NCBI GenBank assembly: GCA_001724265.1
Contig: MEDY01000010.1
Span: forward strand, 1-64,000
Reading direction: 5' to 3'
DNA from: Rhizaria sp. SCN 62-66
Lineage: Eukaryota
Length of the DNA: 64,000 bases
Under the pieces are notes generated by a model. The model had not been told where the DNA came from. It made no database searches and saw only the letters and a list, made by a program, of their open reading frames with translations. Position 1 is the first letter of the stretch. Every line of letters starts with the position of its first letter. Shown piece by piece: positions 1 through 30,808 of this stretch. The position numbers and the translations under genes are program-made.

Positions 1-610
1 ACATGAAATCACGTAGGGTCGAGTTGGCATCATCTACGTCATATTTATGTCCCGCGACATCTTGCTAAAGTAGGGCTAATCGCAAGTTGGCATCAGTTAT
101 CACTACTTCGGTCGCTGCGGCGCCGCCGCGTTCAGCACAGGCAGGGGCGACGGCGCCAACCACCGGCGATGCAGTATGCGTCTGCAGCGGCTGCGGCCCT
201 GCCAGAGAAGAAGAGTTGTGAAAACCAGTCGCGGAGGCGCAGCTGTCTGAGTCGGTTTTCTGGTCGATAGAATGAGAGTCGACAGCGTCTAGCAAAAACT
301 CATCATCCCCAGCGATGTGAGCCAGCGCAGGAAGAACCGCCGAGGAGGCATGGACGTCCGCTAAGGGAAGGGGTTTGGAGGCGAGGAGAGGAGGGCTTGG
401 AGCGGAGGAATCGTCTACGGCGACAGCGGACACCTGACGGTCACGGCCGGTGCGAAGGGTGTCGACCGAGCCAAAATGAGGGTTAGGGACGGCTGAACAG
501 CTGGAACTTGCAGGCAAAGCTGCGCAGGGCATGTGTGCGGCAAGGCGACGCACCAGCCGTTCGCTATTAGACGACTGCAGCTCACCGGAGAGCGGCTTTG
601 AGGGTATCAT
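1..610 (-). CDS. Unknown protein, runs off the window edge; in-frame TAG at 67-65. Could be a mobile-element ORF
   Basis: The listed ORF 65..610 ends at TAG, but the frame continues CAA GAT GTC... (QDVAGHKYDVDDANSTLRDFM) with no stop to position 1. No recognisable domain; codon style is less GC3-rich than the neighbouring genes. Confidence 0.35.
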
Positions 611-839
611 TGTGGCAACAGCGGTGCCGAGGAGCCTTCTGGAAAGCTTGAAAATAAAAAGGGAAGCAGGAAGGAATTAGCTTAGCTGGGGGATATGACG
701 TTAAAAAAAACGTATGAAATTAATAAGTCTACGATGTCAGTCGTCACATTTGTCATTCTAGTGTTGCCAGAGTCCACTACACGCACTTTTCGATGAGACT
801 CCGAAATTGCATCACTTGGGGATCTGCCGACGAGGACAC

Positions 840-959
840 GTGAGCGACTGTGGTGACTGTGAGCGACTTTGGTGACTGTGTGAACGCCTCCGAAATGACA
901 CCATTAACCATGGTAAGGCCGGCTTTGACCGTGAGCGACCGTGGTGACTGTGAGCGACT
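840..959. repeat. 19-bp minisatellite GTGAGCGACYKTGGTGACT in two clusters
   Basis: Copies at 840-858, 859-877 and 931-949, plus a partial copy at 950-959. Confidence 0.9.
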
Positions 960-1962: not shown

Positions 1963-4900
1963 ATGGACCCGTACTCCAGCTCTGTTGGTGCTTACCCGGG
2001 TGCCATCCCGGGTGCCCCATACGCTGCAGGTCTCCCCGATCCTTACTCTGCCTCCGCCATGTCCGCATACGGCCCCGCGTACCCTGGATCGATCAACGCG
2101 ACTCTCCCGATGCACTCTACCTCCTCTCTCCAGCAACAGCAGCTGTTGCAGCAGCAACAGCAGCAGCAGCTGCAGCACCAGTCCGCGCTGGTCCCGCTCC
2201 CCGTCTCGACCCTCCGCGAAGACTTCGTGCAGAACGCCATGCGTTTCCTGCAGAACCCCGAAGTGGTCAAGTCTTCCCCTGCGACGCGCGTGGTGTTCCT
2301 CGAGAAGAAGGGGCTCGCCGCCGGCGAGATCGCCGAGGCGCTGCGCCGCGTGATGCCGCTCGCGCCGGAGACCGCGCTCGTGGCCACTGCCGCCAGCAAA
2401 GGCCAGTCCGCCTCCGCCGCGGTTGCCGGGCTGGCCGACCCCGCGCAGTTCGCCGCCGTCACCGCCGCGGGCAACGCCTCTGGCTCCGTCTCCGGCTCGC
2501 ATCCCCCGGCTGCGACTAGTGACAGCGCCGGTGGCCTCTCGACGGTGGCACTGCCAGGAATGGTTCAGGTTGGCCCCACTTTGTTCGCGTATCCGTACCA
2601 GCTGCACCCCAGCGTCGCCGCGACCGCCGCCGCCTCCCCGGCATCCTCAGCCGCGGCCGCTGCGTCTTTGGCGGCGGTGGCCCGCCGGTCCCCCGCTCGC
2701 GCGTCGTGGCTCTCTTCCCTGCTCTCTGCGCTCACTGTTGCCGGGGCCGCGGCCGCGAGCATCGCGCTCACGCGAAAGCTGCTGCTGTCCTCCGCCGACG
2801 CGGAGCCCGGGGCCGCGAGCGGAGCACTCGTACCCGTGGGCTCCAACAGCAACGCAGTCTCGCAGGGCGCGGAGGGCGGCGACGTCCTCAGACTCACACA
2901 TAAGCCCGCTTCAGACGCCGCGGGCATCAGCGCTGGTCTCGTGAGTGCGCCCGATGCTGTGGCCATTGCAGCCGCTGCCTCCGCCGCCGCCGCCGCCGCC
3001 ACCGCCGCCAACGGTCCCCGCCCCAGCCCTTCCAACAACAACAACAGCACCGGCTTCGCCAACAACGGCGGCTTCCGCAGCCTGAGCGGCGGCAACAACC
3101 CGACGACCCGCAGCAGCGTCGCTGAACTGGTCGTCGAGTCCCAGGAGGACATTTTCATCAAGGGCTTCAACGAAGTCAAGGCCACGATCACGGACCTCAC
3201 GAGCGCGCTCGCCGCGACTCAGAGCGCCGCCGCCGGTCACACCGCCACCCTCGCGTCTCTGGCGCATTCGTTGGCTCCCGTGGCCTCGCTGGCGCCGGCG
3301 TGCGATGCCGCGCAGGCGGCCGCGGTGGGCGCGCAACGCGCGGCCGAGGCCGCCGTGGCCGCCGCCGACAGGGCCGCGGAGCGCGCCGCGGCCGCCGCCG
3401 AGGCCGCCGGAGCCGCACCGGCCGACGGAGGCGCCGCCGCAACCGCGCGCGAGGCTGCGCTCGCCGCGACCGTCACCAAGGCTGCAACGGACGCTGTCGA
3501 GTCGGCCGTGGCCGCCGCTGTGACGGCCGCGGTGGCGCGCGCGGTCGCCGAGGTGGAGGCGCGCGCCGTCGAGCGGGAGGCCGCTCGCGAGGCCAAGGCT
3601 GCGGCTGCAGCGGCAGCGGCGGAGGCCAAGGCTGCGGAGGCTGAGGCGGCGCGCGGGGGCGAGGCGGCGTGGGGCAAGCGTTTCGACGCGCTGCAGGGCG
3701 CGCTGGAGGCCGTGGAACAGATCCTGGGCACGCTCGTGCAAGTGCAGGTGCAGCAGCAGCACGGCGGCGCGGGAGGTATCAGCGCGACGGGCCTCGTAGG
3801 CAGCAGCAGTGTTAACAATGCTGCTGCGAGCGCGAGTGCGGATGCTGCGAGCGTGAATGCTGCGACAGCAGCCGCTGCGCATGTGGCCAGCGACGCTCAG
3901 GAGGAGGGAGACGGCGCAAGCGCAAGCGCCACCGCCCACACGAATACTCGTAGCGACCGGGACGTCAAGGTCAAGGCTTAGCTTGTTTCCGCAACTGCTG
4001 CGAACACACAGTCAACCTTGCTGGCAACGGCTCCTCTGCCCTCCTCATCCTCGTCATCGTTGTCGTCATCGGTGCTGTCGCCGTCCACGGGCTCCGACTC
4101 CGCCGCCGTCACCGCCCCCGCCGCTAGCACCACTGCCGATGCTGCTGCTGCGGCACCTGCGGGCGCAAGCACCAGCAGCAGCGAGCAGAGCGAGTACCTC
4201 TCCGCATGGGTTGCCAACTCGAGCTCCAGTTCTCTTGTCCCCAATCCTTCGGCCTCCAGCTCAGACGGCAACGCTGCTGCCGCCGCAAACGGCGTGTCTG
4301 TCAACACCGCCTCGAGCTCCACAGTGCCTGCCCCCGCCTCCGCGCCCGCCCCTAGCACCGGTGCGAGCTCAGCGCACACCGGCGCTAGCGCGGGCCACAC
4401 CGCAGCTCCTGCGACCAGTGTCAGCACTAGCGCTGCGACCGCGAGCACGGGGTTCACGTGGGCCGCTGACGTCACTTTGCCGGCTACGCGGCCTGTGACG
4501 CCGCCTCCCGTCAGCACTGCATCATCAGCATCAGCCACTGCTCCGACTGCTACGACGGCAACGGAGGTTGCTCGTGACGTGCCCACCCACACCCCGAGTA
4601 ATCCTTTCACCGACGGCACTATCTACAACGCCGCCATCGCCCGCCCCGGCGTGAGCGCGGAGATCTCTCTCCCCGCCGACCCCACCGCGGCGACCGATGC
4701 GCAGTGTGGGCTCCAGCTCGCGGCCGCGCGCGCCGCCGTCGCCGCGTCGCTAGCCGACATGCGGATGACGGCCGTACGCGAGTTCACGGCCTCCTTCGAC
4801 GCCGCGCGCGCGCAACGTGACGCGTCTGCCGCCGCCGCCGCCGCCACAGCCTCTACTGGCAGTGACAGCGCTGCGGCGACGGAGGCCAAGGTGGCGGTGG

Positions 4901-5397
4901 CCGGCGGCGGCGATGACGGCAGCGGCCTCACTGTCACCGCCACCACCACTGATGCCGAGCTCTGGGAGGCCGCTCGCGCGACCGAAGTTGCGTACGCAGC
5001 GAAGACGCTGCTGATGTATCTCCGCAACATCACCAAGGACCCGACCAAGTCGACCTACCGGCGCATCAGCATCACCAACGCAGCGTTCCGGCGCATCTCC
5101 CAAGTCCCGGGCGTGGAGCGACTCTTCACGGCGCTGGGTTTCGAGTCGCGGCCACCCTTCTACGAGCTCTCGGCGGACCCCGTGCTGCCGCTGGGACTGA
5201 CAACGGTATTCCAGCTTGCCAACAACAGCATGGGCAGCGCTGAGATGGACGAGTGGTGCACCAAGGCCAAGGAGGCCGTGTTCGCGGCGCGGCTGACCGT
5301 GGTCGGGGAGGTGCTGCAGAGCGTCAGCGAGCTGCAGACGGAGCTTGCGCTGGGGCCCAGGGGCGGGAGCGTCGAGATGCCGCCGCCGCTCGAGTGA
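1963..5397 (+). CDS. PEX14: Peroxin Pex14 (Pex14_N, hydrophobic segment, coiled coil) fused to a C-terminal PUB domain; in-frame TAG at 3979-3981
   Basis: Pex14_N motif LREDFVQNAMRFLQNPEVVKSSPATRVVFLEKKGLAAGEIAEALRR and PUB motif KTLLMYLRNITKDPTKSTYRRISITNAAFRRI...LFTALGF. ORFs 1960..3981 and 4018..5397 share one frame, separated only by TAG, with no AT-rich spacer. Ends TGA. Confidence 0.85.
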
Positions 5398-5895: not shown

Positions 5896-7860
5896 ATGTT
5901 ACGTTGCACACCGGCTGCACTTCGGTTTATCCCTTTGAACCCGGCAACCGTGTGCGAGATATCTTCCTTGCTCCGCGCCCGACCCCGCTTCACCCTCCGC
6001 GCTGCCAAGCCCCACTTGCCCCTCTCGTCTCTCACCACCACGCAGCAGCAACCATGCGGAGCTCATGCCACCTGCAGTCTGGCGCATAACGCGTTGGTGC
6101 CGCTGACCGGCGTCGGCCAAGAGACCGCGGGCGCCGTGTACGGGCGCAGCGCGTTCGCGCGCGCGGGCGACGACATTGGCGACCCCAGCTTCATCTCCAC
6201 CGCGCTCGGCTCGCTGCGCACGGCGCCCACGCCCACGGCGCGCGCCGCGGCCGTGCTCCTGCCGCTGTGCCTGGACGGCGGCGTGCCGTCGGTGCTGTTT
6301 ATCCAGCGGTCGCGCAGTATGCGCCACCACCGCGGGCAGGCGGCCTTCCCGGGCGGCATGCTCGACAGTGAGGACTGTGGCGACCCGGTCACGTGCGCAG
6401 TGCGCGAGTGCGTCGAGGAGATCGGGCTGGGTGTGAAGCCCGTACTGTCGAGCGCGTTCTTTACGCAGGGCGCGATCAGCCGCTTTGTGCCGGTGCAGGA
6501 GCGGCTGGCAGCTCTCTCGCGCGACGCTCACGCCGTTCAAAGCACCAGGGACCTTAGTGTCAGCGCTGACGGTGGCGATGGCCACATGTCGATGACTGCG
6601 ACGTTTGCGATGTCGAGGACGACGACGAGGGCGCCCAGCTCTATTTCAGGCTCCGACTCGAGCTCTAGCTTGAGCTCGAGCTCTGGCGCTGGGAGTGCTG
6701 CTGCGGCGACCACGCAGACCACTGAGCACAAATATGCAACCTTCACGAAGATGACACAGACGACAACAAGTAGAGCGCCGTCTCTGGGTACTTTGCGGGC
6801 GACTCGCAACGGCAACCACAGCGACTGCGAGCAGTGCAGCGACTCTGAGTCCAGCAGCACCGCAGATCCCGCTGCCCACGGTCTCCACGGCACCGCCGCC
6901 GACGCCGACGACCCGCTTGGGACCGACTCCGACGCTGGGTCGGACGTCGACGCCCTTCTCGCCTCGACGCCGGACCTGGCCGTCCTGGGGCTGCACCACG
7001 ACTGCTCGACGAGCGAGCGCCACCGCCCCGACGGCACCGTCATCACGCCCGTCATCGGGCTGCTCGCGCACGACGTCACCGTCACGCGCTTCGCGCTCTC
7101 GCAGGCGGAGATTGGACGCGTCTTTTGCGTGCCGCTCGAGGCGCTCGCCGACCAGTCTAAGTGGGGGGTATACAAGGGACGGCCTAGCTTTTAGCACAGG
7201 CTCGATGAGGGGTACTTAGTGTCCCGGCAAGGGCACTTGGACACTGCTGCACCCGGTAAGGGTATGTCGTCAAAGCCGCCTCGTGTCAAGTGCCTGACGG
7301 ATGCTGTTGAGGCGCTGACGAAAGCGCCTTACAACACCAGTCCAAGCAGCAGCAGCGCGACAGCGGTTGATGCGGATGAGACGAGTGCTGTTATTATGCA
7401 TTACCCGTTTTCACTGGATATCGATGACGATATGTGTGACGGCACTCTGCAACCAGCCTCTACAACAACAACAACGACAATGACAGGGCACATGGGTAAC
7501 GTAACGACAACGACGAGTGCTGCGGGGGCAGCGACAACGACAACGACGATGAGTATGATTAAAACGTCCTCTGTCGTTGCGTCACCGCTTGGACAACAGG
7601 TGCAGTATCAGCCGCCAACTCGGGAGACATTTCCAGGCCTTGCGGCCAACGCCACAATTGTGGATGTGAAATTATCCGCAGCGCAAGGCACTGATACTGC
7701 TGATCCGAGTGCAGCAGCTGCTGAGAAGACCGTGAGCAGCGACAATGTTGGCGTTGTTGAGGCACATGACGAAGACACATCACGTCGTGTTGTTATCTGG
7801 GGAGCTTCAGCGTGGATTCTGAGCGTGTTCATCAAGCAAATCGTCCATAAGGTGAAGTAA
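5896..7860 (+). CDS. Nudix CoA pyrophosphatase (NUDT7/NUDT8/PCD1 family) with a possible mitochondrial presequence; in-frame TAG at 7192-7194
   Basis: AAVLLPL...LFIQRSRSMRHHRGQAAFPGG..D...CAVRECVEEIGL (NuCoA motif and Nudix box), VITPVIG and EIGRVFCVPL lie before the TAG. The family C-terminal motif VIWGASAWIL lies after it in the same frame. Ends TAA. Confidence 0.88.
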
Positions 7861-8263: not shown

Positions 8264-11200
8264 TTATTGTTGCATGCAACCCTTGTCCTTCTTTTTCTTC
8301 TTGTCATCCTCGGCAGCTGCAGCCGGAGCTTCCTCCGGAACAGCAGGAGGTTGTTCTTGCTCATGCTTAGTCCCACTTGCCACACCAGCGTTTGATGCAG
8401 TAGCAGGTGCCTCGGTCTCAGCAGCACTGTGCTGTTGCTGCGTCTCCGGTTGGTCAGTAGCGGGACCAACCTCAACGCTGCTAGCACTGCCAGCAGAGCC
8501 ACTCACATCATCAAACACCGTGGCAGTCGCCGCGTTCTGGGCAGACTCACTAGTTTCGCCAGCACTTGAACTCGCACTTGTGTTCTCAGGAGCAGCGGAA
8601 GCGAGACTGCTGTCTGAGGCAACAGCAGCAAACTCAACGCATTCGTGAATAGTCTTGCGAACCTCAGTATTATTGCTCTCCTGAGCTTTCTCTTCAGTCT
8701 GGGCATCCTTAGCGTCATCATCTTCCTCAGCCTCGCCCGACGACGGGGGCGCCTGGTGCAAGTAGTAGGACCTCGACGGCCGCGCGCTCGCCCCTGCGTC
8801 GTCCCCCGTCGCGCCCGTCGTGCTGTTCGCGACTCTCGTAGAGCCCGCACCGGCGTTGATGGTCGGCGCGCGACCCCACCCGCTGCGCCAGTCCACCTCC
8901 TGCTCCGCCGCCGCACGGGCGAGGTCCTCTTTCTCCTTCGCGGCCGCGGCGGCCTCGGCGGCGGCCGCCAGCGCGGCCTCGCGCGCGGCCGCTGCGGCAG
9001 CCTGCTTGGCGATGTTGGCGGCGACGACGGCCTCTCCTATGTGTGCGTGCAGAGCAATTGATCAAGCAACGAGTTGAACAGGTTAAGTGATGAGTGGGCT
9101 CGTTTCAAAATTAAGCTATATGTAAAGGAAACATAAATATATCACGGATATGAATGATGAGTCCAAGAATACAAATGCAGAATAGATCATAGAAAGTAGC
9201 GTACCCGGGTAGACGAGCGCGAGCGCGACGGCGGCCTCGTTGTCGTCCTGCTCCTGCTCCCACACCGGCGAGTCCCAGGGCAGCAGCGTCTGGATCTGCA
9301 TTGACGTCGCCGCGGCCGACGACCCGGGCCGCACGAGCGCCGCGGTCGCGGCGGCGGCGGCGGGCTCGTAGTCCTTGTTGTGGTAGTGGCTCAGGCCGTG
9401 TTCATCGCTTGCGGTGCCGGCGCCCGCGTTGCCGGTGCTGTTGTCGGCGTTGGCCGCCTGCCGCGCTGCGAGCGTGGCGTACTGCGGCGACGGCGACGTG
9501 GCGCGCGAGAAGGAGTCGCAAGGGAGCGACGGCGCGACGCGCACGACGAGACCGTCGTCATCGTCATCGTCGTCGTCATCGCCATTATTACCGCCCTCAA
9601 CGACACTCGCCGTAGTGGATGGTTTGGACTCGTGAACAGTCGCGTCGCCGTCGTGGTTCTCAGCAGCAACATCATCGTGATCGTCATCATTTGCAGTAGC
9701 ATGCTTTTCGTTCACAATTTTCTTGCTGCTGCTGCTACTGCTCAGGGCGTTGATGTCTTCGCCGTTGGCCACCGCACGCATGCGGGCCTCGAGCTCGCGC
9801 TCCAGCGCCTCCTCCACCTCTGCGTACTCCCAAACCTGATCCGCATTCACTGGCAGCGGCGCCGAGAGCACCATCGACCGCCGCGCCAGCGCTGCGGCCA
9901 AGAGAGACGGAGAGTCGGGCGCTCTCTCGACCACAATGGCACTGACGCCGCTAGCGTTGGCGGCATTAGCGCCGGCACTATCCTGGTTACCGGTGGCGGC
10001 CATCTTTAGCTGCGACTGCGAGCGGGACTGCGCCAGCAGCTGCAACGTGCTGTTGCTGTTCACTGGCTCGCCCGCTGCGCCGTTGAAGATCGCGGGCGCT
10101 TGGCCCGCGGCGGCGACGCGATGCGGGCGCCTGGGCGACACGGCCGAGAGCGCGAGCGCACACGTCTTGAGCGGGCCCTGGTAGCCCAGCGTGTGCAGCA
10201 GCGCGCCGTCGATCTGCAGCGGCGACGCGTACACCTGCACTGTGCTAAGGTCGCTCGACTGCCCGCGCCCGTGGCCGTGGTGGCTGTGACCATGGCCGTG
10301 GCTGTGAGAGTGGCCGTGAGCAATGTCGATGTTGCTGTCGTCGCCGTCGTCATTGGTGCCGTGTAGGCTCTCACAGTCGCTGCCCACCTCGCGACCGTGA
10401 ACGTGAGCGGAGTCAGGTTCGCCATGGTGTTGCTGATGATGTTGCTGTTGCTGCTGCTGGTTGGCGGGCACGGGCGTGCCGGACCGCGGCGTGTCCGACG
10501 GGGACGACGGCGGCCTGACCTTGGCGAGCGCCGCGGCCGACACGGGGGCCGTGCTACCGGGCGCCGCGGGCACTGCCAGTGGCGTGCGCATCGGCGGCGG
10601 CGGGCCCCAGCTGCCGCGGACACGCACGGCAGGGGCGGCGCCGGCGCCTGCAGTGCCAGTGCCGTCCTGAGTTGACCGCTCGTTGTGCGCGTCACCGTCG
10701 CCCTGCTGTTGCTGTTGCTGCTGGTGTTGCTGGTAGCACTGCTGCCGGTAAGCCCTCCTGTCGCGCTCCTGCTACTCCTGCTCCTGCTCCTGCTGCTTCC
10801 GCAGCGTCCGCGCCGCGCGGCTGCCGCGAGGGCTCTCGTCGCGCTTGCCAGCCGCGCTGCCGCCGCCGCCGCCGCCGCCGCTGTGGCTGAGGCTGCCGCG
10901 GCGCGTCCCGGCGTACTCGACGCCCGCGCTGCCGCTCCGGTAACTCGCTGCGTGGTCGTTACCGTTCCCGGAGTTGGCCGAGTTCGCGGCGCTACTCTTG
11001 CTCTGAAGGCAGTCGGCGGCGTCCCACAGCGTGAAGTCAAGCCCGGGCGTGGTGACGAAGCCGGCCGAGTTGATGTAGCGCTGCTTGCCCGGCAGCGGCA
11101 CGGCCAGCTCGGCGATGCGGGCGGGCAGCGGCCGCGACACGACGCCCCTGTCCTTCCCGCTCTTGGCGCTTGGGCCGGCATGCTTGGAGTCCGTGCCGTT

Positions 11201-17695: not shown

Positions 17696-17732
<37 letters not shown>

Positions 17733-17938
17733 CGTCCGCAGCTGCAGCGGGGGTGACTGCAGGCAAGAAGAAGGCTGCGAGCGGCGGCCACCATAACAAG
17801 GAGGAAATGATGTGGTTTTGGGCTGCGGACCCGACGTACAACGCGTGCGGCGGGCACAAGGGCAGCGCTATGCTGGGGACAACGAAGGGCGGGGCTAGCG
17901 TGCTACCAGCGGGCGCATCGGTCGCGTTTGTGGCCTGA
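16709..17938 (+). CDS. DOT1-like class I SAM-dependent methyltransferase
   Basis: LLYGEVLPEG, motif I FDYGMGTGKL, VVGVEISPSRY and ADIIFMN. ATG chosen at the AT-to-GC transition. Ends TGA. Confidence 0.7.
17699..17728 (+). repeat. (GCT)n microsatellite encoding poly-Ala
   Basis: About 10 tandem GCT units inside the methyltransferase CDS. Confidence 0.85.
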
Positions 17939-18436
17939 GGTAGCTGCATCAGATTCGCATCGTATCTGTTGCAGTCGAACTCTATATTTATAACATACTG
18001 AATATCCTTCCAGTGGGCCCAATTTTAAATATATCCCACCTAATTTGTTATATAGTCAAATACACTTTCTTATGTTAGTTGGATGTTGATCTGCGCCCTA
18101 CAGCACTTGCTTTGTGTTGCTAAGCCTCATTTTCACTGTCTAGTGCGGAGAGTCGACCGGCGAGTCTCTAGTCCCGCGAAGGGGTGTTTTGGGAGCCGAC
18201 TACAAAGTTCAAATAGGAGATGTTTCAATCGTCGATTCAGAAAGCGGGCGCATGTATAGATTTATAGACAGTATTGTTAAACCGTGTTCAAACATATACT
18301 CCTAAGTATTCGCTGTGGTCCTGTACCAACCATGTTTTCCTCACACTGCTTCCTCTCTGCCTTTGCTCTTTCCGACGACCACCTCGAGTCTTCTCCCTCA
18401 CACCACACGCATTGTGCGTCTTATTTCGCGCTGCGA

Positions 18437-21400
18437 ATGGACGGTCTTTATCCGCACGAACACCCATACCCCGGCCGCGCCCACGCTCAGCCCATGTTGG
18501 GGCCGCTCACCCCCGCCGGCCCCGCCTCCCTAGGTCCTCACACAATCCCCACTTCCGCGGGCCTGCCCGCCGGTCTAAGCTCGGGCCTGGCCCCTGGGCT
18601 TAGCACCGGGCTTAACGGCGGCCTTGGCAGCGCGCTTCCACTGGCTGGCAGCACCGTCGGCGGCCGCTATCCGCAGACCGGCTCGACCCCCCTCGGCAAC
18701 GGCTCCCACTACGCTCTGTCCGCTTTGCCAGCCACATCTCTCTTCGACGCCCCAGTGCCCGCTTCCACAGGCGCACGCGCACTGGGCATTACCGCTTCGC
18801 CATATACCTTGTCCGCTGCCTCTGCAGCTGCGGCTACCGGAGCCGCCGCAGCTGCTGCTACTCCGCTTTCTAGCCCTGCCGCCACTGACGCAATGTTTAG
18901 CGGTCTCGGCCTCGCAAACAGCGGCGCTGTCGTCGCCGGCGGTCGGGGTTTGATGCATGCCGCACCCACCTCAGTGCCGACGCTGACACCGCCGTCTAAT
19001 TCGGAGCCCAGTGGTTCTCAGGAGAGCGATGTGAAGCACCACCTCTACCACCAGACGTACCGTACCCACCTCAGCCACCCCCGTCACCATGCTCAGCATC
19101 ACAATCTACAGCCGCAGTCTGCCGGCCTGGCTGTGGGCGCTGCACAGGCTCTGCTGCCCGCCGGCATGCCCGCGGCTGCTGCTGCTTCTGCTGTTGCCAA
19201 CTCCGGTCACTCGCAACATTCGCAGGAGAGCATCGGTAGCAGCAAGACTGCGCGCGGTGCCGGCACGAGCTCGATCACCCAAGCTGTGAACAACGGCAGC
19301 AACGAATACGTGAGCTTGTTTGGACAGCACACGACGATGCCTCTTCCTTTAGCAGCGGCAGTCAATAACGATACCGCAGCAAACGACTTCACGTTTCATT
19401 ACGCAAGTAGAGCCAACGCGGCTACGCCTGTTCCCTATAACGCTGCATATGGGAACCACACAATGGACTCGTTTCACGGCAGTTACGTCGGCGGTTTCGA
19501 GATTGGAGTCGACCATGACGACGAGGACGATGACATCATGGGCAGTGCTGTGTATGACATCAACCCCTCCGCCGTCGCCACGCCAGCAACCGCGACTGAT
19601 GCGAGTCTGTACTCTTGCCCGAACGCCGCAACTTTAGGCAGCGGCAATGGCAAGGGTCCAGCTCTTGCTGCAAAGAGCAAAGCTGTGGGCAAGTCGAACG
19701 CGAAGTCCAAGTCATTGTCAAAGAAGAAAGGAGGCAACGCTGCAACTGGCGATGACGACGACTTCGACCCGAACATCGACTACGGCGGTTTCGTCTTCTC
19801 GCCCACCGAGACCTCTGGCGAAGAGTGCTACGAACAGTGCGTGCTGCTCTCGCGCTCGCTGACGACTGAGGCGCTGGACCAGTTCCGCTTCCGCGGCCAC
19901 GCCGACTACTTGGACCCCACATGTCTCGCATACTTACACTCGCTGACCTGTGCAGACCCGCCCGTGCCGCGCACCTTCCTCAACTACCTGCCGCGGCTCT
20001 GCGGCCTCCTCCCCGCGGCCGCGTTTTACCGGCCCGGCATGCACCCCGTCAAAGGCAACCCCGACGCGACGCAGGCGGCGGCCGCGAGCGACCACAGCTA
20101 CGCGCTGCAGTCGCAGTGCGAGGTCTGCGCCTCGGGCGCCGAGGAGTCGCTCATGCTGCTCTGCGACGTCTGCAACCGCGGGTTCCACACGTTCTGCATC
20201 GCGCTGGGTCGCACGCCGCCAGACGGGGACATGTGGGTGTGTCTGCGGTGCGTGTTCGACCAGCGAAGCAGGGACGTGTTGGCCAAGATCTACAACGAAC
20301 AGGTGCAGCTGCGGAAGAAGAAATGTGGCATCTTTTATGCAGCGCAGGGTCACAAGAAGAAAGCAACCAGCCATAGCAACAATATTAACAACAACAGCAA
20401 CACCAACAGTAACATCAGTAGTTTAAGTGCTGGCTACAACTATCATGCTACCACCCATAGTAGTGGTGGTAGCTCTGTGAACGCGAGCACATCAGGCAGC
20501 CCGATTGTTGACAATTCAAACGAGTTTATCACTGCAACTACGAATCCGCAGCAAAGCATGAGCACAAATCAGATTGTTGGTGCTCAGGGCATCAGTAACA
20601 ACCTCGCGACTCCTCAGGCTTCCTCCTCTGTGAATGACGATGTCTCCCGATCTGGCAGCATGAATGTGATCTCGCTGCTGTCCGACTCCGACGACGAAGG
20701 CGAGAGTGCTAGCACACACAGCAATGGGCACGACAATGCTCAAAACATGGTTAAGAACGGCTACGGGAACTGTGATGACTCAAAAACAAGTGTGGCTGAC
20801 ATCGCTTCTTCCGCTGGGGGCGACGGCTATTCGAACGAGTTTTCATTTGCAACCACAAGTCCTCACACCGCAAGCAACACAGGCGGCTACGCCAGTGGTC
20901 ACACCCACGCTGTCGACGCTGTTTCCGGCGACAGGACTGCTACTGCTGCTGCAGCAGTTGCTGGGACGACTGCCGCGGCTACTTTTGTTGGGGACGACGA
21001 TGACGTTGTATTCATTGACGATGATGATGACGATGATATTAAGCATAACGCGTTTACGCGCATCGGTTCTGGCTCTGGCACCCTCAGTCAAGCCACCAGC
21101 AGTCAAAACAGCACCACTATTAAGGCTGCTACGTTTAAGATGAATAGTCGCAAGCGCGTCGCAACATCTTCACCCCTCGTCGACACAGTAGTTATTGGAA
21201 GTTCTCATTCGAATACCACCAATAACAGCAGCCGCAGTCGTTACGCCTCTGCCGAGCCGGTCCCTGCCCTGTAGCAGCTCAACGCTCTTGGTGCCGCTGA
21301 CTCCGACGCCGCCGCTGCGACTGCGGCTGCGGCTTTTGACACGAGCAGCCGCCCCCGCCGCCGCGCCGCCGCGGTCGCCGCAGACTCGATCCGCCTGCAG

Positions 21401-23623
21401 CAGCAGCGCTCGCCGGGCGTTGTGATGGCCAGCACCACGTACCAGGGCGTTAGCACCTGCGGCGTCACCGGCCAAGCGTTGTTCTCCACCCAGACACAGA
21501 CTGCGAGCGCCGTGCCTTTCCTTGTGTCTCAGCAGCACCCCGCTACGGGGCCCGCCTCGCAGCAGCCGAACGCGTCGCAGCAGCTGCACGCGTCGCAGCT
21601 CACCGGCGCCGGCTCGGCCTCGCAATACAGCGACGTAAGCAGTGCGGGCGCTTCGCAGCAGAGCTTCCCGTTGAGCGCCGGCACTGGCGCCGGCCCGGGC
21701 TCATCGCAGTCGTCAGGCGCTGCAGGCACGAGCAACAGCGGCGCCAGCCTCGCCGCCAAGCCGCCCATGCGTTTGCTGGGCTCCGGCAAGTCTGCCGCGA
21801 CTGCTGGAGCGGGGACGGCGCGCGGCGGCCGCAGCGCCCGCGGGACCCGCGGTGGCGGCGGCGCGCGCTCTGGCGCCGGTCGCTCTGGCTCCAGCTCCGG
21901 CGTGGGCGCCGTGTCTTTCGGGAACATGGAGCTCGTGATCGGCGGGCCCGGCTTCAGCGCGTTCCACAGCGTCGAGCAGATGGCCATGGAGAAGGCCGCC
22001 GCAACCGCCGCCGCTGCTGCCGCGAAAGCGAATGGTAGTTTTGACGGCGGCAACATCAGTGGCGACGGCAGTGTGAGCGCGACCGCGTTGGGCTACAGCG
22101 CGAGTAGCAGTAACCACAGCCTTGGTGGCGTCCTCAACATGTCCGAGTCGAGCCAGAGTCCAAGTGCCGCCGGGTCGAGTCTAAGCGCCCCCGCGCTGCC
22201 CACGCCGGTGTGGGGCTACATCCTCAGCGACGCGCCCGTGGCAGGGGACGCGGGGTTCGTGCAGGTCACGGCCACCGTCGCGGTGCCTCCGATGAAGCTT
22301 ACAACTGCAGAGCGCATCAAAGTCGAGAAGGCCGAGAGTGAGGGCTACAGCAAGCCCATTTACCACCGGTTCAAGCCGCCGCAGCCGACCGGTGCGAGCG
22401 GCAGTGGCGGTGCTGGGGACTTGTCCGTGATGTTGCCGTCGTTTGGCTTTATGAACAACTTCTTCGACACTGACGACGTGCCTGGCGCGATGTACTGTGT
22501 GAAACGCTATGAAAAGCAAGCTGCCTTGCAGCAGCCGCAAGAACAGGCCCCGACAAGTGCAAATGCCAGTGTGTCTGCGATTGTTCCGAACAAGTTTACC
22601 ATTAAGGACGGCACCGTGGTCTTCTTCCCGCCCTGGGCCCTGTCTCGCGCCGGGCCGTTTGCGCCGCTGCTGCCTGTCGGCTGGACCGACCGCGAGCTCA
22701 GCAGTGGCACCGGGGTCGGCAACGCCGACAGCCCCGTCTCGCACAACATCGCTTCTAGCTGCAGCTTCGCGACTGCAAACAGTGACAACAGCGGAGCCGG
22801 GGTCACTGCTGATGACGACGAGGACGACTTCGAGATTGAAACTGTGAAAATGACCGTGAACACCGCCAGCGCCCTCGCTTCGCTGCCGCACCCACGGTCA
22901 CTGTGCAAGATGCACCCATTCGTGGCCCCGCGGAACAACACAGCGAGCTCGCAGTCGCTTGCGGCAATGACCTCGTATCTGCAGCAGCAACAACTGCAGC
23001 AATCGGGCTCGTCGCGATCGCACTTGCACTCGAACTCGCACTACAGCTACAACAACAACTACAACAATGCCGCCGCCGCCGCCGCCGCCGCGGCTGCCGC
23101 GGCGAACGTAACTGCAGCCGCGGCCCCGCAGCCGCCGCCGACCGAGGCCGCGGTCGCGCTGGCGCGGTACTGTGACAACTGCCGCTGCGTTATCTGCGAG
23201 AGCCCCCCGCGCGAGTGCCCGGCGTGGACCGACGCGGCCGCGCTGGCGCTGCAGCGCGCGGGGGCGACGTTCGGCGCCCACGCAGGCCACTGCGGCGCCG
23301 CGGCCGGGGACCCAGTGTGGAGCAAGGCCAAGAAGCGCCTCGCGGACGTGCGCGCGCACCTGGCCTCGGACGCGAGCGCGGGGCAGCGGTACATCGTGAC
23401 GGGCGACGGCAGAGACGTCTCGCTCATGCCGCACGCCGACTCCGAGGCCGCGCGGGCCGCCGCGGTCGCCGCTGTAATTGGACTGGGCGCCGCGGTGTAC
23501 GCGTTCGCGCAGCTTCCCGCCAAGGCGATGAACAAGGTCGTGCTGCAGCAGTCCGGCAGCGTGGTGCTGCCGGAGAAGGCGGCGGGGTCGCTCAAGGGGT
23601 GGATTGTCAAGTCAAGCAAGTGA
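18437..23623 (+). CDS. PHD-finger protein with SUMO-interacting-like motifs and a C-terminal RIN13-like Cys/His domain; in-frame TAG at 21272-21274
   Basis: PHD CEVCASGAEESLMLLCDVCNRGFHTFCIALGRTPPDGDMWVCLRC. ORFs 18284..21274 and 21422..23623 are one frame split by TAG. C-terminal LPHPRSLCKMHPF...YCDNCRCVICE...CPAW...HCGA. Ends TGA. Confidence 0.78.
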
Positions 23624-24316: not shown

Positions 24317-25692
24317 ATGTTTCGCTCGACTGTCTCGCGTATGAGTGCGCAAACGGCCCAGTCTGCCCGCAGCTTCCGCAACGCCTTCGTGGCGCTGCCC
24401 AAGAAGGTCAAGATCGTCGAGGTAGGCCCCCGCGACGGCCTCCAGAACGAAAAGGAAATCCTCGACACGGGTACGCATTATAGTTCAATCCATTGTCACT
24501 GTCTTATTTACTCTAAGGCTGTTTTCTATGGCTGTGTCTTTGTGTAACTGAAATATCCTTATCTCCCCCTCCACCATGAGCGCTGAAATCACTTATGTAC
24601 ACACACTCACATCGCTTCATAAAACATACACCCTTCTATGTTGTGCGCCCCTTTTAGACGTCAAGATCTCCTTTATCGACCGCCTCTCTGCGACGGGTCT
24701 GTCTGTCATCGAGGCGACCTCGTTCGTGTCGCCCAAGTGGGTGCCGCAGATGGCCGACGCGAGCGAGGTGCTTCGCGGCATCACCCCGGCCCCCGGCGTC
24801 TCCTACCCCGTGCTCACGCCCAACCTCAAGGGCTTTGAGGCCGCGATTGAGGCCGGCGCTAAGGAAGTATCAGTCTTCGCCGCCGCGTCGGAGGCTTTCT
24901 CCCAGCGCAACATCAACTGCTCCATCGAGGTCCGTGCTATTCAGAAAAGGATATGATTATGAGATACTTTTCTGGTCAAGTGACCGTGTTCATTGATTAT
25001 ATTAGAATCGAGGAAACTGATCTTGCCTCTTTTTCACTCTTTGCTTTGCGTCTGTATCTCCCCGATCACAGGAGTCGCTGAACCGCTTCCGGCCGGTGCT
25101 GGAGGCGGCGAAGGCCAAGAACATCCCCGTGCGCGGCTACGTGTCCTGCGTTGTGGGCTGCCCCTACCAGGGCTCCGTGGCGCCCGCGGCGGTCGCCTCC
25201 GTGTCCAAGGCCCTCTTTGACGCGGGCTGCTACGAGATCAGCCTGGGTGACACGATCGGCGTGGGCACGCCGCTGGCGACCTGGAACATGCTCTCCGAGG
25301 TGATGCAGGTCGTGCCCGTGGAGAACCTGGCCGTGCATTTCCACGACACGTACGGGCAGGCCCTGGCCAACATCCTGATGGCGATGCAGATGGGCGTCAG
25401 CACAGTCGACGCCGCCATCGCCGGGCTCGGCGGCTGCCCCTACGCGCGCGGCGCCAGTGGTAATGTGGCCACTGAGGACGTACTGTACATGTGCCAAGGG
25501 CTGGGCATCGAGACGGGTGTGGACATCGACAAGATCCTCGACTGTTCGCACTTCATCATGGGCCAGCTCCACATGAAGTCGGCCTCCAAGGCGACGCGCG
25601 CGCTCATGGGCGCACGCAAGAAGCGCTTCGCGGACGACCCCGTGCGCGGGCTTAACCGCGAGATGGTCGCTATGATTGCGCAGCCGCACTAA
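24317..25692 (+). CDS. HMGCL: Hydroxymethylglutaryl-CoA lyase, mitochondrial (348 aa)
   Basis: join(24317..24470, 24658..24929, 25072..25692) = 1047 nt. Motifs [46 protein letters not shown] and [19 protein letters not shown]; Arg/Ser-rich presequence. Ends TAA. Confidence 0.97.
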
Positions 25693-26628: not shown

Positions 26629-27020
26629 CAGCTTTACAAATGCGCACATGATGACCAAAACAAGATTCCGTGAGTTATAATAAAAGTAAAATAAATTATA
26701 CACATGTCTCTATACAATTATAAGGTTATAGTCTTACTGACGATCAGGTCATCGAGTTATGGCCTGGGGAGAATCGACCAGCTTTGAAGTCAAGTTAGCC
26801 GTCGATTTGGGGCCTCGTTCTTGGAGGTCCAAGCCATCAACGTTGAAGTCCAAGTTCTTCATCTTCCGAACGTCATTACAGGATATAACAAGGATTATTG
26901 CTATTAAATCGCCATATAATTGACAGTTCTAATTAGAACACCTCTGAAATCATCGCGCATCTCTCAACTCACCAGTCGTTTCTCCCTCACCGCAACGCTT
27001 CTCTCCTTTCCCCAGTCGCC

Positions 27021-30000
27021 ATGAGCTCAAGCCGGGGCACATCGCGCGCGCGCGCCTCGTCGCCCGACGCGCTTGTGACGCTCTCGCGACCCATGACGGC
27101 GGCGGCGCCCGAAGTGCTGCACCCGGCCGTGCAGCAGCAGCGCGCGCAGGACCCCCGCGAGCCCGGCTGGGCTCAGCTCACCGAGCAGTACGCGCGGCGC
27201 CAGAGCGCGGGCAGGTTCAACTACGATCACATCAAGGAGGCGCAAGCGCACGAGGCCAGCGTCACGCCGGGGCCCGTGAACCAGGTTGACTACTCCATGT
27301 CTCAGTCATGGTACGTCCGCAGAAGGAATCGCACTGCCTTATTTGCACCATCATACTCACTACTCTCCCTGTCAGGAACGCAAAACCATTGTTCAACGAA
27401 CGTACCTTGGTACATATCTAATTAATACTGCATGTGTTCTACTCATTTGCTCCTGTACTCTATAGGGTGCATTCTGGTTCAATCCCGCTCCGTTCCTCGT
27501 CCCCCAACGGCAAGCCCTCTTCCCGCCCCGTCTCCCGCGCAAACCCTAACACGCTGAGCTCGTCCCTGGGCTACAGCAACAGCAATACGCTGCCCGCTGA
27601 CAACGACCTGCCTCCGCCGAACTCAGTCTCGTTCAACAACACCAGCAGCAACAGCAGCAGCAACGAGGTTCCTCCCCCCGCCTCCGCTGCCCCCGGCCAC
27701 GGTCACGGTCACGGTCTCGGTCACCAGACCTCCCACGGCCACATCGCGCCGCCGCCACAGTCCTCGGCATCCGCTGCCGCCGCCGCGGCCATCCAAGCTT
27801 ACTACCACTCGCCCCCGCGCTCGCGCGAGCCGCCGCTGGTGCCCTACGGGCCCTCCGCGCCGCCCTCGGCACACGGCCACGGCCACGGTGGCCATAGTAG
27901 CGGGGCGGGGAGCGCGATCGACGCCGCCGCTCAAGGCCGCGCGGCGTCGCCCAATCGCGGCCGCCACCGCAACCGCCACCACCATCACCCGACAAACAGC
28001 AACAGCAACAGCAGTCTCAGTATCGGTGGGAGCGCGAGTGCGGGCGCCACGAGCGTCGCTCCAGCGAACCCAGCGGAGGCGGTTGCGCCCAACTGGGTGG
28101 CGGCGGCGCCGAGCGCCGCTGCAGCGCGGTCGCCGCTGGCTGCGCAGAGCGCGATCTATGGGGCTAGACTCGCGAAGCGCAACACCCATAACAACAACAG
28201 CCTTGTTGCTCCTGGCTCAGCTAGAAGCGGCGCTTTCAGCCGCAACGGTCACACTCCATATGGACAGATTCAACAGCAACAGCAGCAACAATTGCAGTCT
28301 CAATCTGATCACTATCTACAGCAACAGCAGCAGCAGCAAGCGCAGGTGTTTTACCACACGAAGCCCGCGACGAGGGCGAAGATCCGTGCCGTCGTCAACA
28401 GAAACAAGCCCCTGGTCAGCTACAACGATACTACCAGTGCTGACAACGCCAGCGCTGACGGCCGCAGCAGCGGCAGCAGCGCCGCGGCAGAGACCGTTCT
28501 TGTCGCCGCACTGGCCGAGACCCGAGTCACAGACCCCAGCGCAAGCTCTCCCCCCGCGGCGACCACGACAGTCGTCGACGTGTCGCCGACGGCTGCGGCA
28601 ACGGCGGCGACGCGCTCTGTTCTAGCGCACGGCGACGCGACGGACCGCGCGACGGCGGTGGGGCTGCCGCTGCGGGCTACGGTGCTGGGCGATTCGTGCC
28701 ACGCCGACGCCGAGGCTGCGTTCGAGAACAGCGAGTCGGACGGCGAGTACTACGATCACGACTACTGCACCAGCAACGACGACGACGCCAGAAGCTACCA
28801 TTACCCGCAGCAGCCGCAGCAGCAGTTGGACACTCAGCAGCAGCAGCAGCAGCAGCAGGGGCAGGCTCATGGACCTGGTCAGCAGCCGACCCCTGCGATC
28901 GCGGGCGCGCCGGTACCAGCCGAGTCGGCGCCGCTCTCGTTTCCCTCGAGCGCCAGCATAACGCACGGGCTGGGCGGTGGCAGCGCCGTGGGGGCGTGGT
29001 TCGCGACCGGGGCCGCCAACAACACGACGGTCACAGGCAGCGGCGCCTTCTCGCAGGTGCGCGGGCCCGATGTGCTGAGGGGTGTGTTGAGGGGCTCGCC
29101 GTGGGGAGAGCTGAGCAACAGCGGGGGCAGCAGCGGTGGTGGCAGCGGGGGCCGCGCGGGCAATGAGGGCGACGGAGCCGCGGCGCTCGCGGCTGCCGAG
29201 GCTGTCGGTGGCGGCAACGGCGACGACGCCGACGGCAACGGCAGCGGCAGCAAGGCGCTAGTCGAGGCCGGCGGCAGCGCGGGCGGCAGCGGCAGTGACA
29301 GGCACGCCAGCAGGGCGCTGGTGCTGCAGACGCACTCGTTCCCGCCCCGGGAGCCGCCCGCGCCGGCGCCGGAGGAGGCCCGCCACTACCGCTACTCGAC
29401 GCGCTACGGCAACCAGACGGGGCTCAACGACCCGAACCTGCCGCAGTTCCTGCCCAAGAGCGGTGACAACACGCCCGAGTACCACAACAACGGCGGCGGC
29501 GGCGGCAATGGCGGCATGGGAGCGCAGTCGTCGCTGGCGTCGGCGCGCAAGCCGGTTCCCGCGTCCGTGCACGCCGCCGTGGCCGAGAGTCCGGTGACGC
29601 GGGTGACGGTGAGCTCGCGCGCCCACGCACCGGCCGAGCTGGTGCTGCCGTGTCTGGGCCGCGCGGCGGCGTACAAACAGCAGCAGGAGCAGCAGAGGCA
29701 GCAGCAGGAGCAGCAGAAGCAGCAGCAGCAACATTGTGGTGGTGTGACACCCGACAATATCAATGCTACCGGGAATGCATCTGAGCAGCAGCGGATTACC
29801 TTTGACTCCTCGGCCACGACCCCTACTCATAACAACAACAATAACAACATCAACAGCAACAGCACGCATAAAACGAGTCGCACTGGTCTGTTCGCCAGTT
29901 TACCAATTTCTCCGCCACCTCAGTACAGTAATAACTCTCAGTCGCGGTCGCACTCTGGGTCGGGCTCGCAGTCGGCGCGCAGCATCAGTGGCAACTACAA

Positions 30001-30808
30001 GACTCCGCAAAAGCAGCAGCAACAACAGACTGCACCCGCTGCAAACGCTCGTTCTCACGGTCCCGGAAATGGTCACGGCCAGACCCAGCGTCAGAATCAG
30101 GGTCAGAGTCAAAGCGCCCGCAAGCCCGTCGCGAACTCAACCAACTCAGCGGCAAAGCCACAAGGCCAGCAGCAGCAGCAGCAGCAGGGCAAAGACCAGC
30201 CGCCGCCGCAAGGGGCCGGCGACGCCTACCCTGCCGTCGCCGGGCACTCGTTCTCCTCGGCCCAGCACGCGCGCGGGCGCCTCGAGGCGCGCCAGTGGGT
30301 CGAGACCGCGGCGGCCGCGACCGCCGCCGCACGCACGCGCCGCCCCGCGCCGGCCCCGCGCCCCGATGACGGCGAGGGCGGCGCGGCGGCCGGGCAGATG
30401 AGCGGCGGGCAGATGGGCGGGCACGCACTAGTCCCGTTGGCGGCCGTGAAGCAGGACAAAGACAGCAGGTTCCTGCGCGGGAACCATCACTCGCAGTACT
30501 CGCGCAAGGCGCTCGAGGCCGTGGACCTGACGTACCGCGCCTACGAGGGACCCGACAGCGAGGACGAGCTGGGCAGCGACGACGACGGCGGCGGCGGCAG
30601 CGGCAACGGCAACGGTGGCAAAAGCGGCAACGGCCGGTACTTCAACGCGAAGCTGCGGCACCATTTCCCGGTTGCACTGCGGAGCTTTTTGCTGGCGTAC
30701 AAGAAGACAGTGCAGCCCAAGCTGGCCGCGCTGGGGCTGGAGCAGCAGCAGGGCCGAGACGGCGGACCGCATCAGCAGTAGCAGCACCACGGTGGCGAGT
30801 ACAACTGA
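27021..30808 (+). CDS. Unknown Gln/Asn/Ser/Gly-rich, probably disordered protein; TAG at 30779-30781 probably read through to TGA at 30806-30808
   Basis: join(27021..27310, 27466..30808) with a phase 2 intron GTACGT...TATAG that is frame-consistent. The end reads CAT CAG CAG TAG CAG CAC CAC GGT GGC GAG TAC AAC TGA. No known domain recognised. Confidence 0.7.

Follow-up and report, generated by a model that had tools for sequence, protein, structure and literature searches.

The 64-kb stretch of DNA analyzed here (hereafter the window) comes from a GC-rich (63%), intron-poor, non-ciliate microbial eukaryote from wastewater, and it raises the question of whether UAG is translated as a sense codon in this organism while UAA and UGA continue to end translation. 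The original prediction had proposed such a code on the basis of six in-frame TAG codons, at positions 65–67 and 10772–74 on the minus strand and at 3979, 7192, 21272, and 30779 on the plus strand. A check of the coordinates and reading frames bore out all six. The evidence described below is drawn from the sequence of this one 64-kb window, and the features to which it refers are collected in Table 1.

Table 1. Genes, in-frame TAG codons, and terminators in the window
Feature	Positions	Strand	Description
Gene model A (weak)	2..676	-	Runs off window
TAG, gene model A	65..67	-	Context CTT TAG CAA; possible true terminator
Gene B	1963..5397	+	Pex14_N ahead of TAG, PUB domain past TAG; TGA end
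In-frame TAG, gene B	3979..3981	+	Context GCT TAG CTT; coding-like frame on both sides
Terminator TGA-G, gene B	5395..5397	+
Gene C	5896..7860	+	NUDT7-type Nudix hydrolase (Nudix CoA-diphosphatase-like) with long low-complexity inserts; TAA end
In-frame TAG, gene C	7192..7194	+	Context TTT TAG CAC
Terminator TAA-G, gene C	7858..7860	+
Gene ED	8264..13723	-	Exons 13723-12007, 11868-9205, 9036-8264; introns 12006-11869, 9204-9037; TAA end
In-frame TAG, gene ED	10772..10774	-	Middle exon; context GAG TAG CAG
Terminator TAA-G, gene ED	8264..8266	-
Terminator TAA-A, gene F	16216..16218	+	Acyloxyacyl-hydrolase-like
Terminator TGA-G, gene G	17936..17938	+	DOT1-like
Gene H	18434..23623	+	PHD-finger protein; PHD finger ahead of TAG, C-terminal module with homologue P0006 past TAG; TGA end
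In-frame TAG, gene H	21272..21274	+	Context CTG TAG CAG
Terminator TGA-A, gene H	23621..23623	+
Terminator TAA-G, gene I	25690..25692	+	HMG-CoA lyase, three exons
Gene J, main exon	27467..30808	+	TGA end if TAG 30779 is read through
TAG, gene J	30779..30781	+	Context CAG TAG CAG; 9 codons ahead of TGA; weak case
Terminator TGA-A, gene J	30806..30808	+
Terminator TAA-G, gene K	31175..31177	-
Terminator TGA-G, gene L	32844..32846	-	Zinc-finger protein
Terminator TAA-A, gene M	63087..63089	+	9,213-codon ORF, TAG-free

TAG codons within long coding frames

The 18,329 modeled codons hold five in-frame nonsense codons, all of them TAG (genes B, C, ED, H, and J); as had been claimed, neither TAA nor TGA occurs in frame. 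Interruptions thus affect 5 of 13 genes, with five nonsense codons and no frameshifts. Reading through the TAGs at 3979, 7192, 10772, and 21272 joins frames of 686 + 472, 448 + 222, 368 + 552, and 998 + 783 codons, respectively, and places the next in-frame stop 471, 221, 551, and 782 codons past the TAG. By comparison, the next in-frame stop past the 11 TAA or TGA gene ends lies 3–84 codons away (median 11), such that real genes would gain only a few codons by reading through these terminators. The 150 nt after the four TAGs have a GC content of 0.59–0.75, as against 0.27–0.58 after the 11 gene ends, and codon log-odds in the TAG frame remain positive throughout at all four sites. The five known introns are 138–189 nt long with a GC content of 0.34–0.43, and no AT-rich GT..AG span was found over any of these four TAGs. 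We consider them solid cases inside long GC-rich coding frames.

The TAGs at 30779 and 65 are weak cases. The eight codons past TAG 30779 have a coding score of 6.6, compared with a maximum of 2.0 in 11 UTR controls, and AT-rich sequence begins only past the TGA at 30808. Gene model A is weakly coding, with a signal that fades near position 90, and the 21 codons between its TAG and the window edge have a UTR-like score (−6.9); the TAG at 65 may be the true stop of this gene. The claim that coding style continues unchanged across every TAG holds for the four solid sites, is weak at 30779 with its eight codons, and is doubtful at 65.

Orthologues, exon structure, and start codons of the interrupted genes

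Gene C provides the most direct view of a TAG in its protein context. The public gene call for this gene (P0001) ends at TAG 7192, but the orthologues P0002 (529 amino acids) and P0003 (321 amino acids) from related organisms extend past the equivalent position. Opposite the TAG, these orthologues carry a single residue, A or D, which is preceded by an invariant GRPSF and followed by H, and they have a C-terminus in common, VV(I/V)WGA(S/T)AW. The position falls within the NUDT7 fold, although the second aligned stretch is weak. Because there is exactly one orthologue residue opposite the TAG, an intron or gene boundary is excluded at this site. Gene C is the one TAG-bearing gene of the five for which an orthologue spanning the TAG was found; none was found for the other four.

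In gene ED, GT-AG introns flank TAG 10772 and fix a single frame down to the terminal TAA. The spliced coding sequence comprises 1,718 codons with one internal TAG. A TGA at 11909 falls within the 138-nt intron that joins two minus-strand ORFs into this gene, and a second TAG in frame 9083–11875, at 9116, lies within an AT-rich intron. One possible intron was noted around 10772 itself, a GC-rich in-frame GTACGC..CAG span of 159 nt.

Pfam matches on the gene B ORF are to Pex14_N (residues 98–142) and PUB (residues 1022–1076), which to our knowledge is not a familiar domain combination. Comparison of the C-terminal PUB part with proteins of 629–2,002 amino acids gave no match, a result that has no bearing on Pex14_N/PUB fusions elsewhere. 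The first ATG past TAG 3979 is found 259 codons downstream, and all of the intervening codons are coding-like. A contig from a polyA RNA library maps to 4524–4811, in the post-TAG part of this gene.

For gene H, the product in the public protein collection (P0005) ends at TAG 21272, and P0006, a standalone protein of 501 amino acids, matches only the part that follows. No protein spanning this TAG was present in a library of 1.84 billion sequences, and the sole return of the gene H protein search was the window's own TAG-truncated product. A search of representative sequences with gene H residues 600–1780 yielded 472 matches at E ≤ 0.001. Among the matches inspected besides P0005 and P0006, all were to the PHD-finger part (query residues ~1–190), leaving P0006 alone on the post-TAG side; the representatives library itself lacks the post-TAG ORF of the window.

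TAG codons in other assemblies and RNA contigs

The TAGs appear to be genuine in DNA, and independent assemblies confirm those at 7192 and 21272. TAG 7192 is present in a separately assembled X2/X3 contig corresponding to 6658–7741, and TAG 21272 is present in an X2/X3 contig corresponding to 19078–23010 that has no differences from the window. The X2 and X3 contigs are identical and were treated as one data set. TAG 21272 also occurs in an X4 contig from another study (20933–21726), which differs from the window at seven other positions. No run carried another letter at 3979, 7192, 10772, or 21272, with the listed pieces covering 7192 and 21272. RNA contigs flank 21272 on both sides, and none of the X5 RNA contigs bridges a TAG.

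Sequence collections were scanned in four ways, none of which recovered DNA from this organism or from relatives. Querying metagenomes with the final 5,000 residues of the giant ORF (gene M) gave 588 pattern matches but no relatives. A metagenome scan with Nudix alignment A1 gave 19 loci that were set aside, as they matched the Nudix box only (query 1–60, 39–66% identity); the contig that encodes P0003 was absent from these 19. Neither the giant ORF nor P0002 found a match when scanned against genome contigs.

Terminators and the sequence context of TAG

Eleven gene ends are well defined, comprising six TAA, five TGA, and no TAG, with AT-rich sequence next at each. UAA and UGA act as terminators at all 11. 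The original prediction had counted 12 ends by including a sixth TGA, which is the intronic one at 11909. Its view that TAG never terminates a gene agrees with these ends, with the reservation that gene A possibly does end at TAG 65. The largest gene, gene M, has no TAG, whereas the mean rate across the window predicts ~2.5 (P ~0.08).

The base that follows the codon distinguishes the two groups, being C at 6/6 TAGs and a purine at 11/11 terminators. Given a first-position C frequency of 0.24, the probability of this result is 8e-4 for five of five TAGs and 2e-4 for six of six with site 65. The next codon is CAR at four of the six sites, and YYA follows at none. UAG-CAR-YYA is the leaky stop read-through context of plant viruses, which the window's TAGs resemble in C at +4 (6/6) and CAR (4/6) but from which they differ in having neither YYA nor downstream structure. 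Moreover, the window's TAGs affect whole core domains in 4–5 of 13 cellular genes rather than optional extensions. A search for stimulatory RNA structure in the 122 nt from the TAG at five sites was negative, with folding that did not exceed that of shuffled sequences (z +0.18 to +0.49), which fits a trans-acting code change and not a local signal.

That TAG is the only codon to interrupt genes is a weak argument, because TAG represents 65–67% of one-step nonsense opportunities with the window's codon usage. The exclusivity of TAG at five of five sites (P = 0.12–0.14) is not significant. UAG usage is also very low, at five in 18,329 codons, or ~0.8% of the number of Gln codons.

Explanations for the in-frame TAG codons

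The explanation we favor, and consider rather likely, is a nuclear stop-to-sense change restricted to UAG, wherein UAG is translated and both UAA and UGA terminate. Each TAG falls within one coding sequence, and complete gene products require that ribosomes pass it; UAG is very probably translated in this organism. This part of the earlier proposal stands, on the strength of the Nudix orthologues, the gene ED frame, the 259 codons free of ATG, and the additional assemblies; its argument from the exclusive use of TAG does not carry the same weight. Mechanistically, the ribosome would insert an amino acid at UAG and then continue, with UAA and UGA still read as stops. UAG would presumably be decoded either by a tRNA whose anticodon is CUA or by a near-cognate tRNA-Gln, and a weakened recognition of UAG by eRF1 would be the expected partner change. 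The 64-kb window carries no tRNA gene and no eRF1 gene.

Plain nonsense mutations in pseudogenes or null alleles, left undecoded, would explain the composition of the set easily, since TAG is the commonest nonsense opportunity, two sites lie in runs of CAG, in which C>T changes arise readily, and the TAG at 30779 would cost only nine residues. Such mutations nevertheless give a very unlikely account of the data. They would have struck 5 of 13 genes without a single frameshift and left frames open for 221–782 codons past the TAG with coding codon usage, and they would have spared both the conserved Nudix C-terminus and the splice-linked frame of gene ED. Furthermore, there is no mutational reason for C at +4 throughout, and the same TAG is found in a second strain. 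It is likewise highly improbable that the TAGs are bypassed, whether by GC-rich in-frame introns, by RNA editing to CAG, or because they mark boundaries between adjacent genes in the same frame (a Pex14 and a PUB protein, or a PHD and a P0006-like protein). The unfamiliar pairing of Pex14_N with PUB, the standalone P0006, the strict 159-nt span around 10772, and the lack of any RNA contig bridging a TAG all speak for such a bypass. However, the single orthologue residue opposite TAG 7192 argues against it, as do the AT-rich composition of the five known introns, with no such span over four TAGs, and the absence of an ATG for 259 codons past 3979. True intergenic spacers are also uniformly AT-rich, in contrast to the 150 nt past the TAGs.

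An ambiguous UAG, by which the codon terminates at some gene ends and is efficiently read through at internal sites with C at +4, would have a precedent in codes with dual-use stop codons; what the codon means would then be set by its context or position. The uniform C after TAG, the frequent CAR, the purines after true stops, the very low use of UAG, and the possible end of gene A at TAG 65 are all consistent with this arrangement. We consider it unlikely, given that all 11 well-defined gene ends use another codon than TAG, that the complete CAR-YYA motif occurs at none of the six sites, and that downstream structure is lacking. TAG 65 likewise has C at +4, and therefore context alone cannot separate it from the internal sites. 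Even if UAG is reassigned, as we favor, its confinement to TAG-C indicates that the release factor may still compete for it, and decoding may be context dependent rather than completely reassigned.

The proposed amino acid for UAG

Glutamine, as originally proposed, is the most likely residue to be encoded by UAG, although the data are also compatible with Leu or Ser. The contextual case for Gln comes from two poly-Q sites, and a likelihood based on neighboring residues places Gln ahead by ~5 ln units solely through this pair. These sites are ambiguous because CAG>TAG mutations would arise there whatever TAG means. In the sole alignable TAG column (7192), the orthologues have A and D and not Q.

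Relationship to known UAG reassignments

Passages of PMC11687900 and PMC5304391 describe organisms in which UAG alone has become Gln while UAA remains a stop, namely the fornicate Iotanema spirale, Protocruzia tuzeti, and some phyllopharyngean ciliates, and the abstract of PMC9523058 refers to TAG=Gln as ‘genetic code 15’. PMC11687900 also describes UAG alone as Leu in the uncultured rhizarian exLh and as Ser in the green alga Scotinosphaera, and its relevant part names three non-ciliate nuclear cases. The known cases listed with the original prediction were incomplete, as the same part of that source adds Scotinosphaera, Protocruzia, and several phyllopharyngean ciliates. Within the library of papers covered, a literature search turned up no GC-rich eukaryote from wastewater in which UAG is described as sense. 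The code of the window is a probable addition to the known UAG-only reassignments.

With Iotanema, Protocruzia, and the phyllopharyngeans, the window shares in-frame nuclear UAG, UAA and UGA stops, and Gln as the likeliest meaning. It differs from them in being GC-rich, intron-poor, and non-ciliate, in carrying a peroxisomal gene (Pex14_N), and in its extremely rare UAG, which is confined to TAG-C. The uncoupling of UAG and UAA meanings in a non-ciliate nuclear genome is common to the window, exLh, and Scotinosphaera, but Gln is proposed here rather than Leu or Ser. Amoeboaphelidium protococcarum, an aphelid parasite of algae in which parts of PMC6299283 and PMC5304391 report TAG and TAA as apparently Gln, is similarly a non-ciliate heterotroph, one reported with stop-to-Gln reassignment. 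Its code differs from that of the window because TAA is a stop in the latter; an aphelid-type code was rejected, as TAA ends six genes in the window and is never in frame.

Implications

Nuclear reassignments of UAG alone are rare. They uncouple UAG from UAA, with which it is usually paired, and every further example therefore puts to the test how eRF1 and tRNAs tell these codons apart. The rarity of UAG in the window and its confinement to C at +4, the weakest termination context, suggest that the reassignment is recent or incomplete and that the release factor still competes. A more specific possibility, which we regard as doubtful, is that the organism is a living ‘ambiguous intermediate’, a free-living, bacterivorous, GC-rich wastewater eukaryote in a lineage without an earlier reported code change. 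UAG capture would then have just begun, at TAG-C only and for <1% of the codons of its amino acid, with a few UAG-terminated genes possible. Gene callers cut proteins at TAG, as they have with P0001 and P0005, and the metagenomic annotation of this lineage is consequently wrong wherever TAG occurs. If the proposed code is true, low UAG usage together with strict TAG-C would represent an early competitive stage of codon capture, one that has been predicted but seldom seen.

TAG triplets lie within open, GC-rich reading frames

UAG is probably read as a sense codon in this organism, with UAA and UGA retained as stops. This core claim of the original prediction draws its support from Nudix orthologues, the splicing of one gene, the open GC-rich frames that continue past TAG, and the 11 gene ends that use TAA or TGA. 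The coordinates of all six TAGs (65–67 and 10772–10774 on the minus strand; 3979, 7192, 21272, and 30779 on the plus strand) were confirmed. Among 18,329 modelled codons we counted five in-frame TAGs, leaving out the sixth, which lies in a weak gene model (gene A, 2–676, minus strand), and neither TAA nor TGA interrupts any modelled gene, as had been proposed. The earlier tally of 12 gene ends (six TAA and six TGA) was revised to 11 (six TAA and five TGA) because the TGA at 11909 falls in an intron of gene ED.

Reading through TAG joins frames of 686 and 472, 448 and 222, 368 and 552, and 998 and 783 codons, and reading through TAA or TGA adds few codons before further stops are met. The next in-frame stop after TAGs 3979, 7192, 10772, and 21272 comes 471, 221, 551, and 782 codons downstream, compared with 3–84 codons (median 11) after the 11 TAA or TGA ends used as a control. 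The G+C content of the 150 nt that follow is 0.59–0.75 at these four TAGs and 0.27–0.58 at the control ends. Scored by codon log-odds, with TAG-free genes as the training set, the TAG frame is positive throughout at each of the four, and the other two frames are negative in all but two scored windows. No AT-rich GT..AG span was found over any of the four.

The prediction that every TAG is flanked by unchanged coding style without an AT-rich spacer or intron holds for these four sites but is doubtful at TAG 65, where the 21 codons beyond it in the window resemble untranslated sequence, scoring −6.9 (11 UTR controls, −33 to −2.6) against a fifth percentile of 4.3 for coding windows. Gene A is itself weakly coding, and it is doubtful that TAG 65 is a sense codon. 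Only eight codons follow TAG 30779 in gene J; they score 6.6, above all UTR controls (maximum 2.0), and AT-rich sequence starts only past TGA 30808.

Gene content and intron structure

The window is eukaryotic, with a G+C content of 63%, GC-rich coding frames (GC3 0.7–0.9), and AT-rich introns and intergenic spacers, and its sequence is present in metagenome runs from bioreactor, wastewater, and activated sludge. Pfam matches are to Pex14_N, PUB, NUDIX, DOT1, PHD, Saposin plus GDSL lipase, HMGL-like, and NAPRTase_N, and two GT-AG introns interrupt the HMG-CoA lyase gene (24.2–25.7 kb). The five known introns are 138–189 nt long, with a G+C content of 0.34–0.43 in a tally that used some boundaries off by one base. 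All five share an unusual 5′ splice site (GTACGC, GTCCGT, GTACGT, GTACAA, and GTACGC).

Exons of gene ED and introns of the window
Feature	Position	Strand	Length	Character
Gene ED exon	13723–12007	−
Gene ED exon	11868–9205	−
Gene ED exon	9036–8264	−
Gene ED intron	11869–12006	−	138 nt	AT-rich; 5′ site of GT[AC]C[GA] type
Gene ED intron, before last exon	9037–9204	−	168 nt	AT-rich; 5′ site of GT[AC]C[GA] type
Intron	24470–24658	+		AT-rich; 5′ site of GT[AC]C[GA] type
Intron	24931–25071	+		AT-rich; 5′ site of GT[AC]C[GA] type
Intron	27312–27466			AT-rich; 5′ site of GT[AC]C[GA] type

An uninterrupted plus-strand ORF at 35448–63089 spans 9,213 codons (27.6 kb) without intron or TAG. Its sole Pfam match is one LRR_6 repeat, and two scans of sequence collections found no relatives. 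At 14218–16218 (plus strand) lies an acyloxyacyl-hydrolase look-alike that combines a saposin-like domain with a GDSL lipase. Because enzymes of this type remove acyl chains from bacterial lipopolysaccharide, the gene fits a bacterivorous lifestyle.

Evidence for read-through in individual genes

The Nudix gene C is the best case for a TAG within a single gene. Its public gene call (P0001, 432 aa) terminates at TAG 7192, and the orthologues P0002 and P0003, from other organisms, extend through this position, with pairwise identities among the three proteins of 45–47% over the alignment. The window reads KGRPSF-TAG-HRLDEGY where P0002 has RGRPSF-A-HQLGVPY and P0003 has KGRPSF-D-HFLHTPY, and all three share the C-terminal block VV(I/V)WGA(S/T)AW(I/M)L. 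In each orthologue a single residue aligns with the TAG, which excludes an intron or gene boundary as the explanation. Among solved structures, the closest are those of the peroxisomal CoA diphosphatase NUDT7, and the position equivalent to TAG 7192 falls inside that fold, a lead only, as the second aligned stretch is weak. Gene C (5896–7860, plus strand) also carries three long low-complexity inserts in its Nudix domain that are absent or far shorter in both orthologues. The P0003 gene call begins at the conserved internal Met of ...SRxMRHHRGQ, so that relative must have an in-frame stop or an intron immediately upstream.

The minus-strand ORFs 13723–11909 and 11875–9083 are one gene, ED, joined by the first of its introns. 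The spliced coding sequence comprises 1,718 codons and contains no stops other than TAG 10772 and the terminal TAA, the splice model placing both TGA 11909 and a second TAG, at 9116, in introns. The upstream splice fixes the frame before TAG 10772, and the downstream splice needs the frame after it to reach the TAA.

In gene B (1963–5397, plus strand), the first ATG after TAG 3979 comes 259 coding-like codons downstream, and thus the PUB part cannot start independently there. Read-through of this TAG would yield one protein with a Pex14 N-terminal domain and, at its C-terminus, a PUB (p97-binding) domain, a pairing unfamiliar from other organisms. A protein search found no long proteins with a PUB end related to gene B.

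TAGs in independent assemblies

Contigs from other sequencing runs were placed on positions 3500–23400. Runs X2 and X3, although filed under different studies and years, have identical contig sets, matching in length, depth, and ends; they appear to be a single data set deposited twice and were counted as one. Their contigs 6658–7741 and 19078–23010 cover TAGs 7192 and 21272, respectively, with zero differences. A contig from another study (X4, 20933–21726) also carries this TAG (21272) and departs from the window sequence at seven other positions. No run has another letter at 3979, 7192, 10772, or 21272, contig cover being established at 7192 and 21272. A polyA-RNA library (X5), in which DNA carry-over is possible, yielded contigs 4524–4811, 20805–21157, and 21552–21874, which represent the post-TAG part of gene B and both sides of TAG 21272; none of its contigs within 3500–23400 bridges a TAG.

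Alternative explanations for the TAGs and the probable mechanism

For the PHD-finger gene H, support for read-through at TAG 21272 is compositional only, and the locus may instead hold two separate genes divided there. A protein from elsewhere (P0006, 501 aa) matches the post-TAG part alone, but two genes would need a 150-nt, in-frame, coding-like spacer with a G+C content of 0.75, and no other spacer in the window is of this kind. The post-TAG ORF (21275–23623, plus strand, 783 codons) is absent from a representative library of 1.84 billion proteins, in which the pre-TAG gene call, P0005, is present.

Gene decay through plain nonsense mutation could also produce the exclusive use of TAG. Given this codon usage, TAG makes up 65–67% of the single-base routes to a stop, and five TAGs among five interruptions are therefore unsurprising (P = 0.12–0.14), which leaves TAG-only interruption a weak argument for reassignment. 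Five nonsense codons spread over five of 13 genes, with no frameshift, speak against decay. The lack of TAG among the 11 ends is suggestive only (P roughly 0.01 to 0.09 if an assumed 20–35% of ends were TAG). The +4 context is a much stronger statistical signal: the base after TAG is C at all six sites (CAA, CTT, CAC, CAG, CAG, and CAG), and A or G follows all 11 terminators. For the five gene-internal sites, P = 8e-4 if C is expected at its first-position frequency of 0.24, and about 0.02 if the expectation is its frequency after CAG codons (0.45). The 122-nt stretches from the TAGs show no more stable folding than shuffled sequences do (z +0.18 to +0.49), which makes a local read-through signal unlikely.

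A trans-acting change, comprising a tRNA that reads UAG and an eRF1 with weakened recognition of this codon, would fit better; no tRNA gene was found within the 64-kb window. The GTS, NIKS, and YxCxxxF motifs of the eRF1 N-domain and its position 69 (human numbering) are discussed in PMC5304391. Among eukaryotic termination contexts, C at +4 is known to be the weakest, and UAG is rare (five codons versus 520 CAG and 134 CAA). The strict C and this rarity suggest that the release factor still competes at UAG, and the reassignment may be young or incomplete.

The amino acid and comparison with known codes

Gln would be the likeliest meaning of UAG, as originally proposed, with a neighbour-residue likelihood ~5 ln units over the next candidate. 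The signal comes from two poly-Q sites only (Gln comes after Gln in 23% of cases, compared with 3–6% for other residues), and poly-Q tracts are where CAG-to-TAG changes would arise anyway. No amino acid stands out at the other three sites, and the sole orthologue column, at TAG 7192, holds A and D.

UAG-only reassignments that keep UAA as a stop are described for Iotanema spirale (Gln), the rhizarian exLh (Leu), Scotinosphaera (Ser), Protocruzia, and several phyllopharyngean ciliates (PMC11687900; PMC5304391). The code described for Amoeboaphelidium protococcarum, in which TAG and TAA both encode Gln (PMC6299283), was ruled out because TAA is a terminator here. Searches of one literature library turned up no account of a GC-rich eukaryote from wastewater that uses UAG as a sense codon. 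The window is a probable further case among the known UAG-only reassignments. Its low-usage, TAG-C-restricted pattern is unusual and would be of greater interest if it holds true genome-wide.
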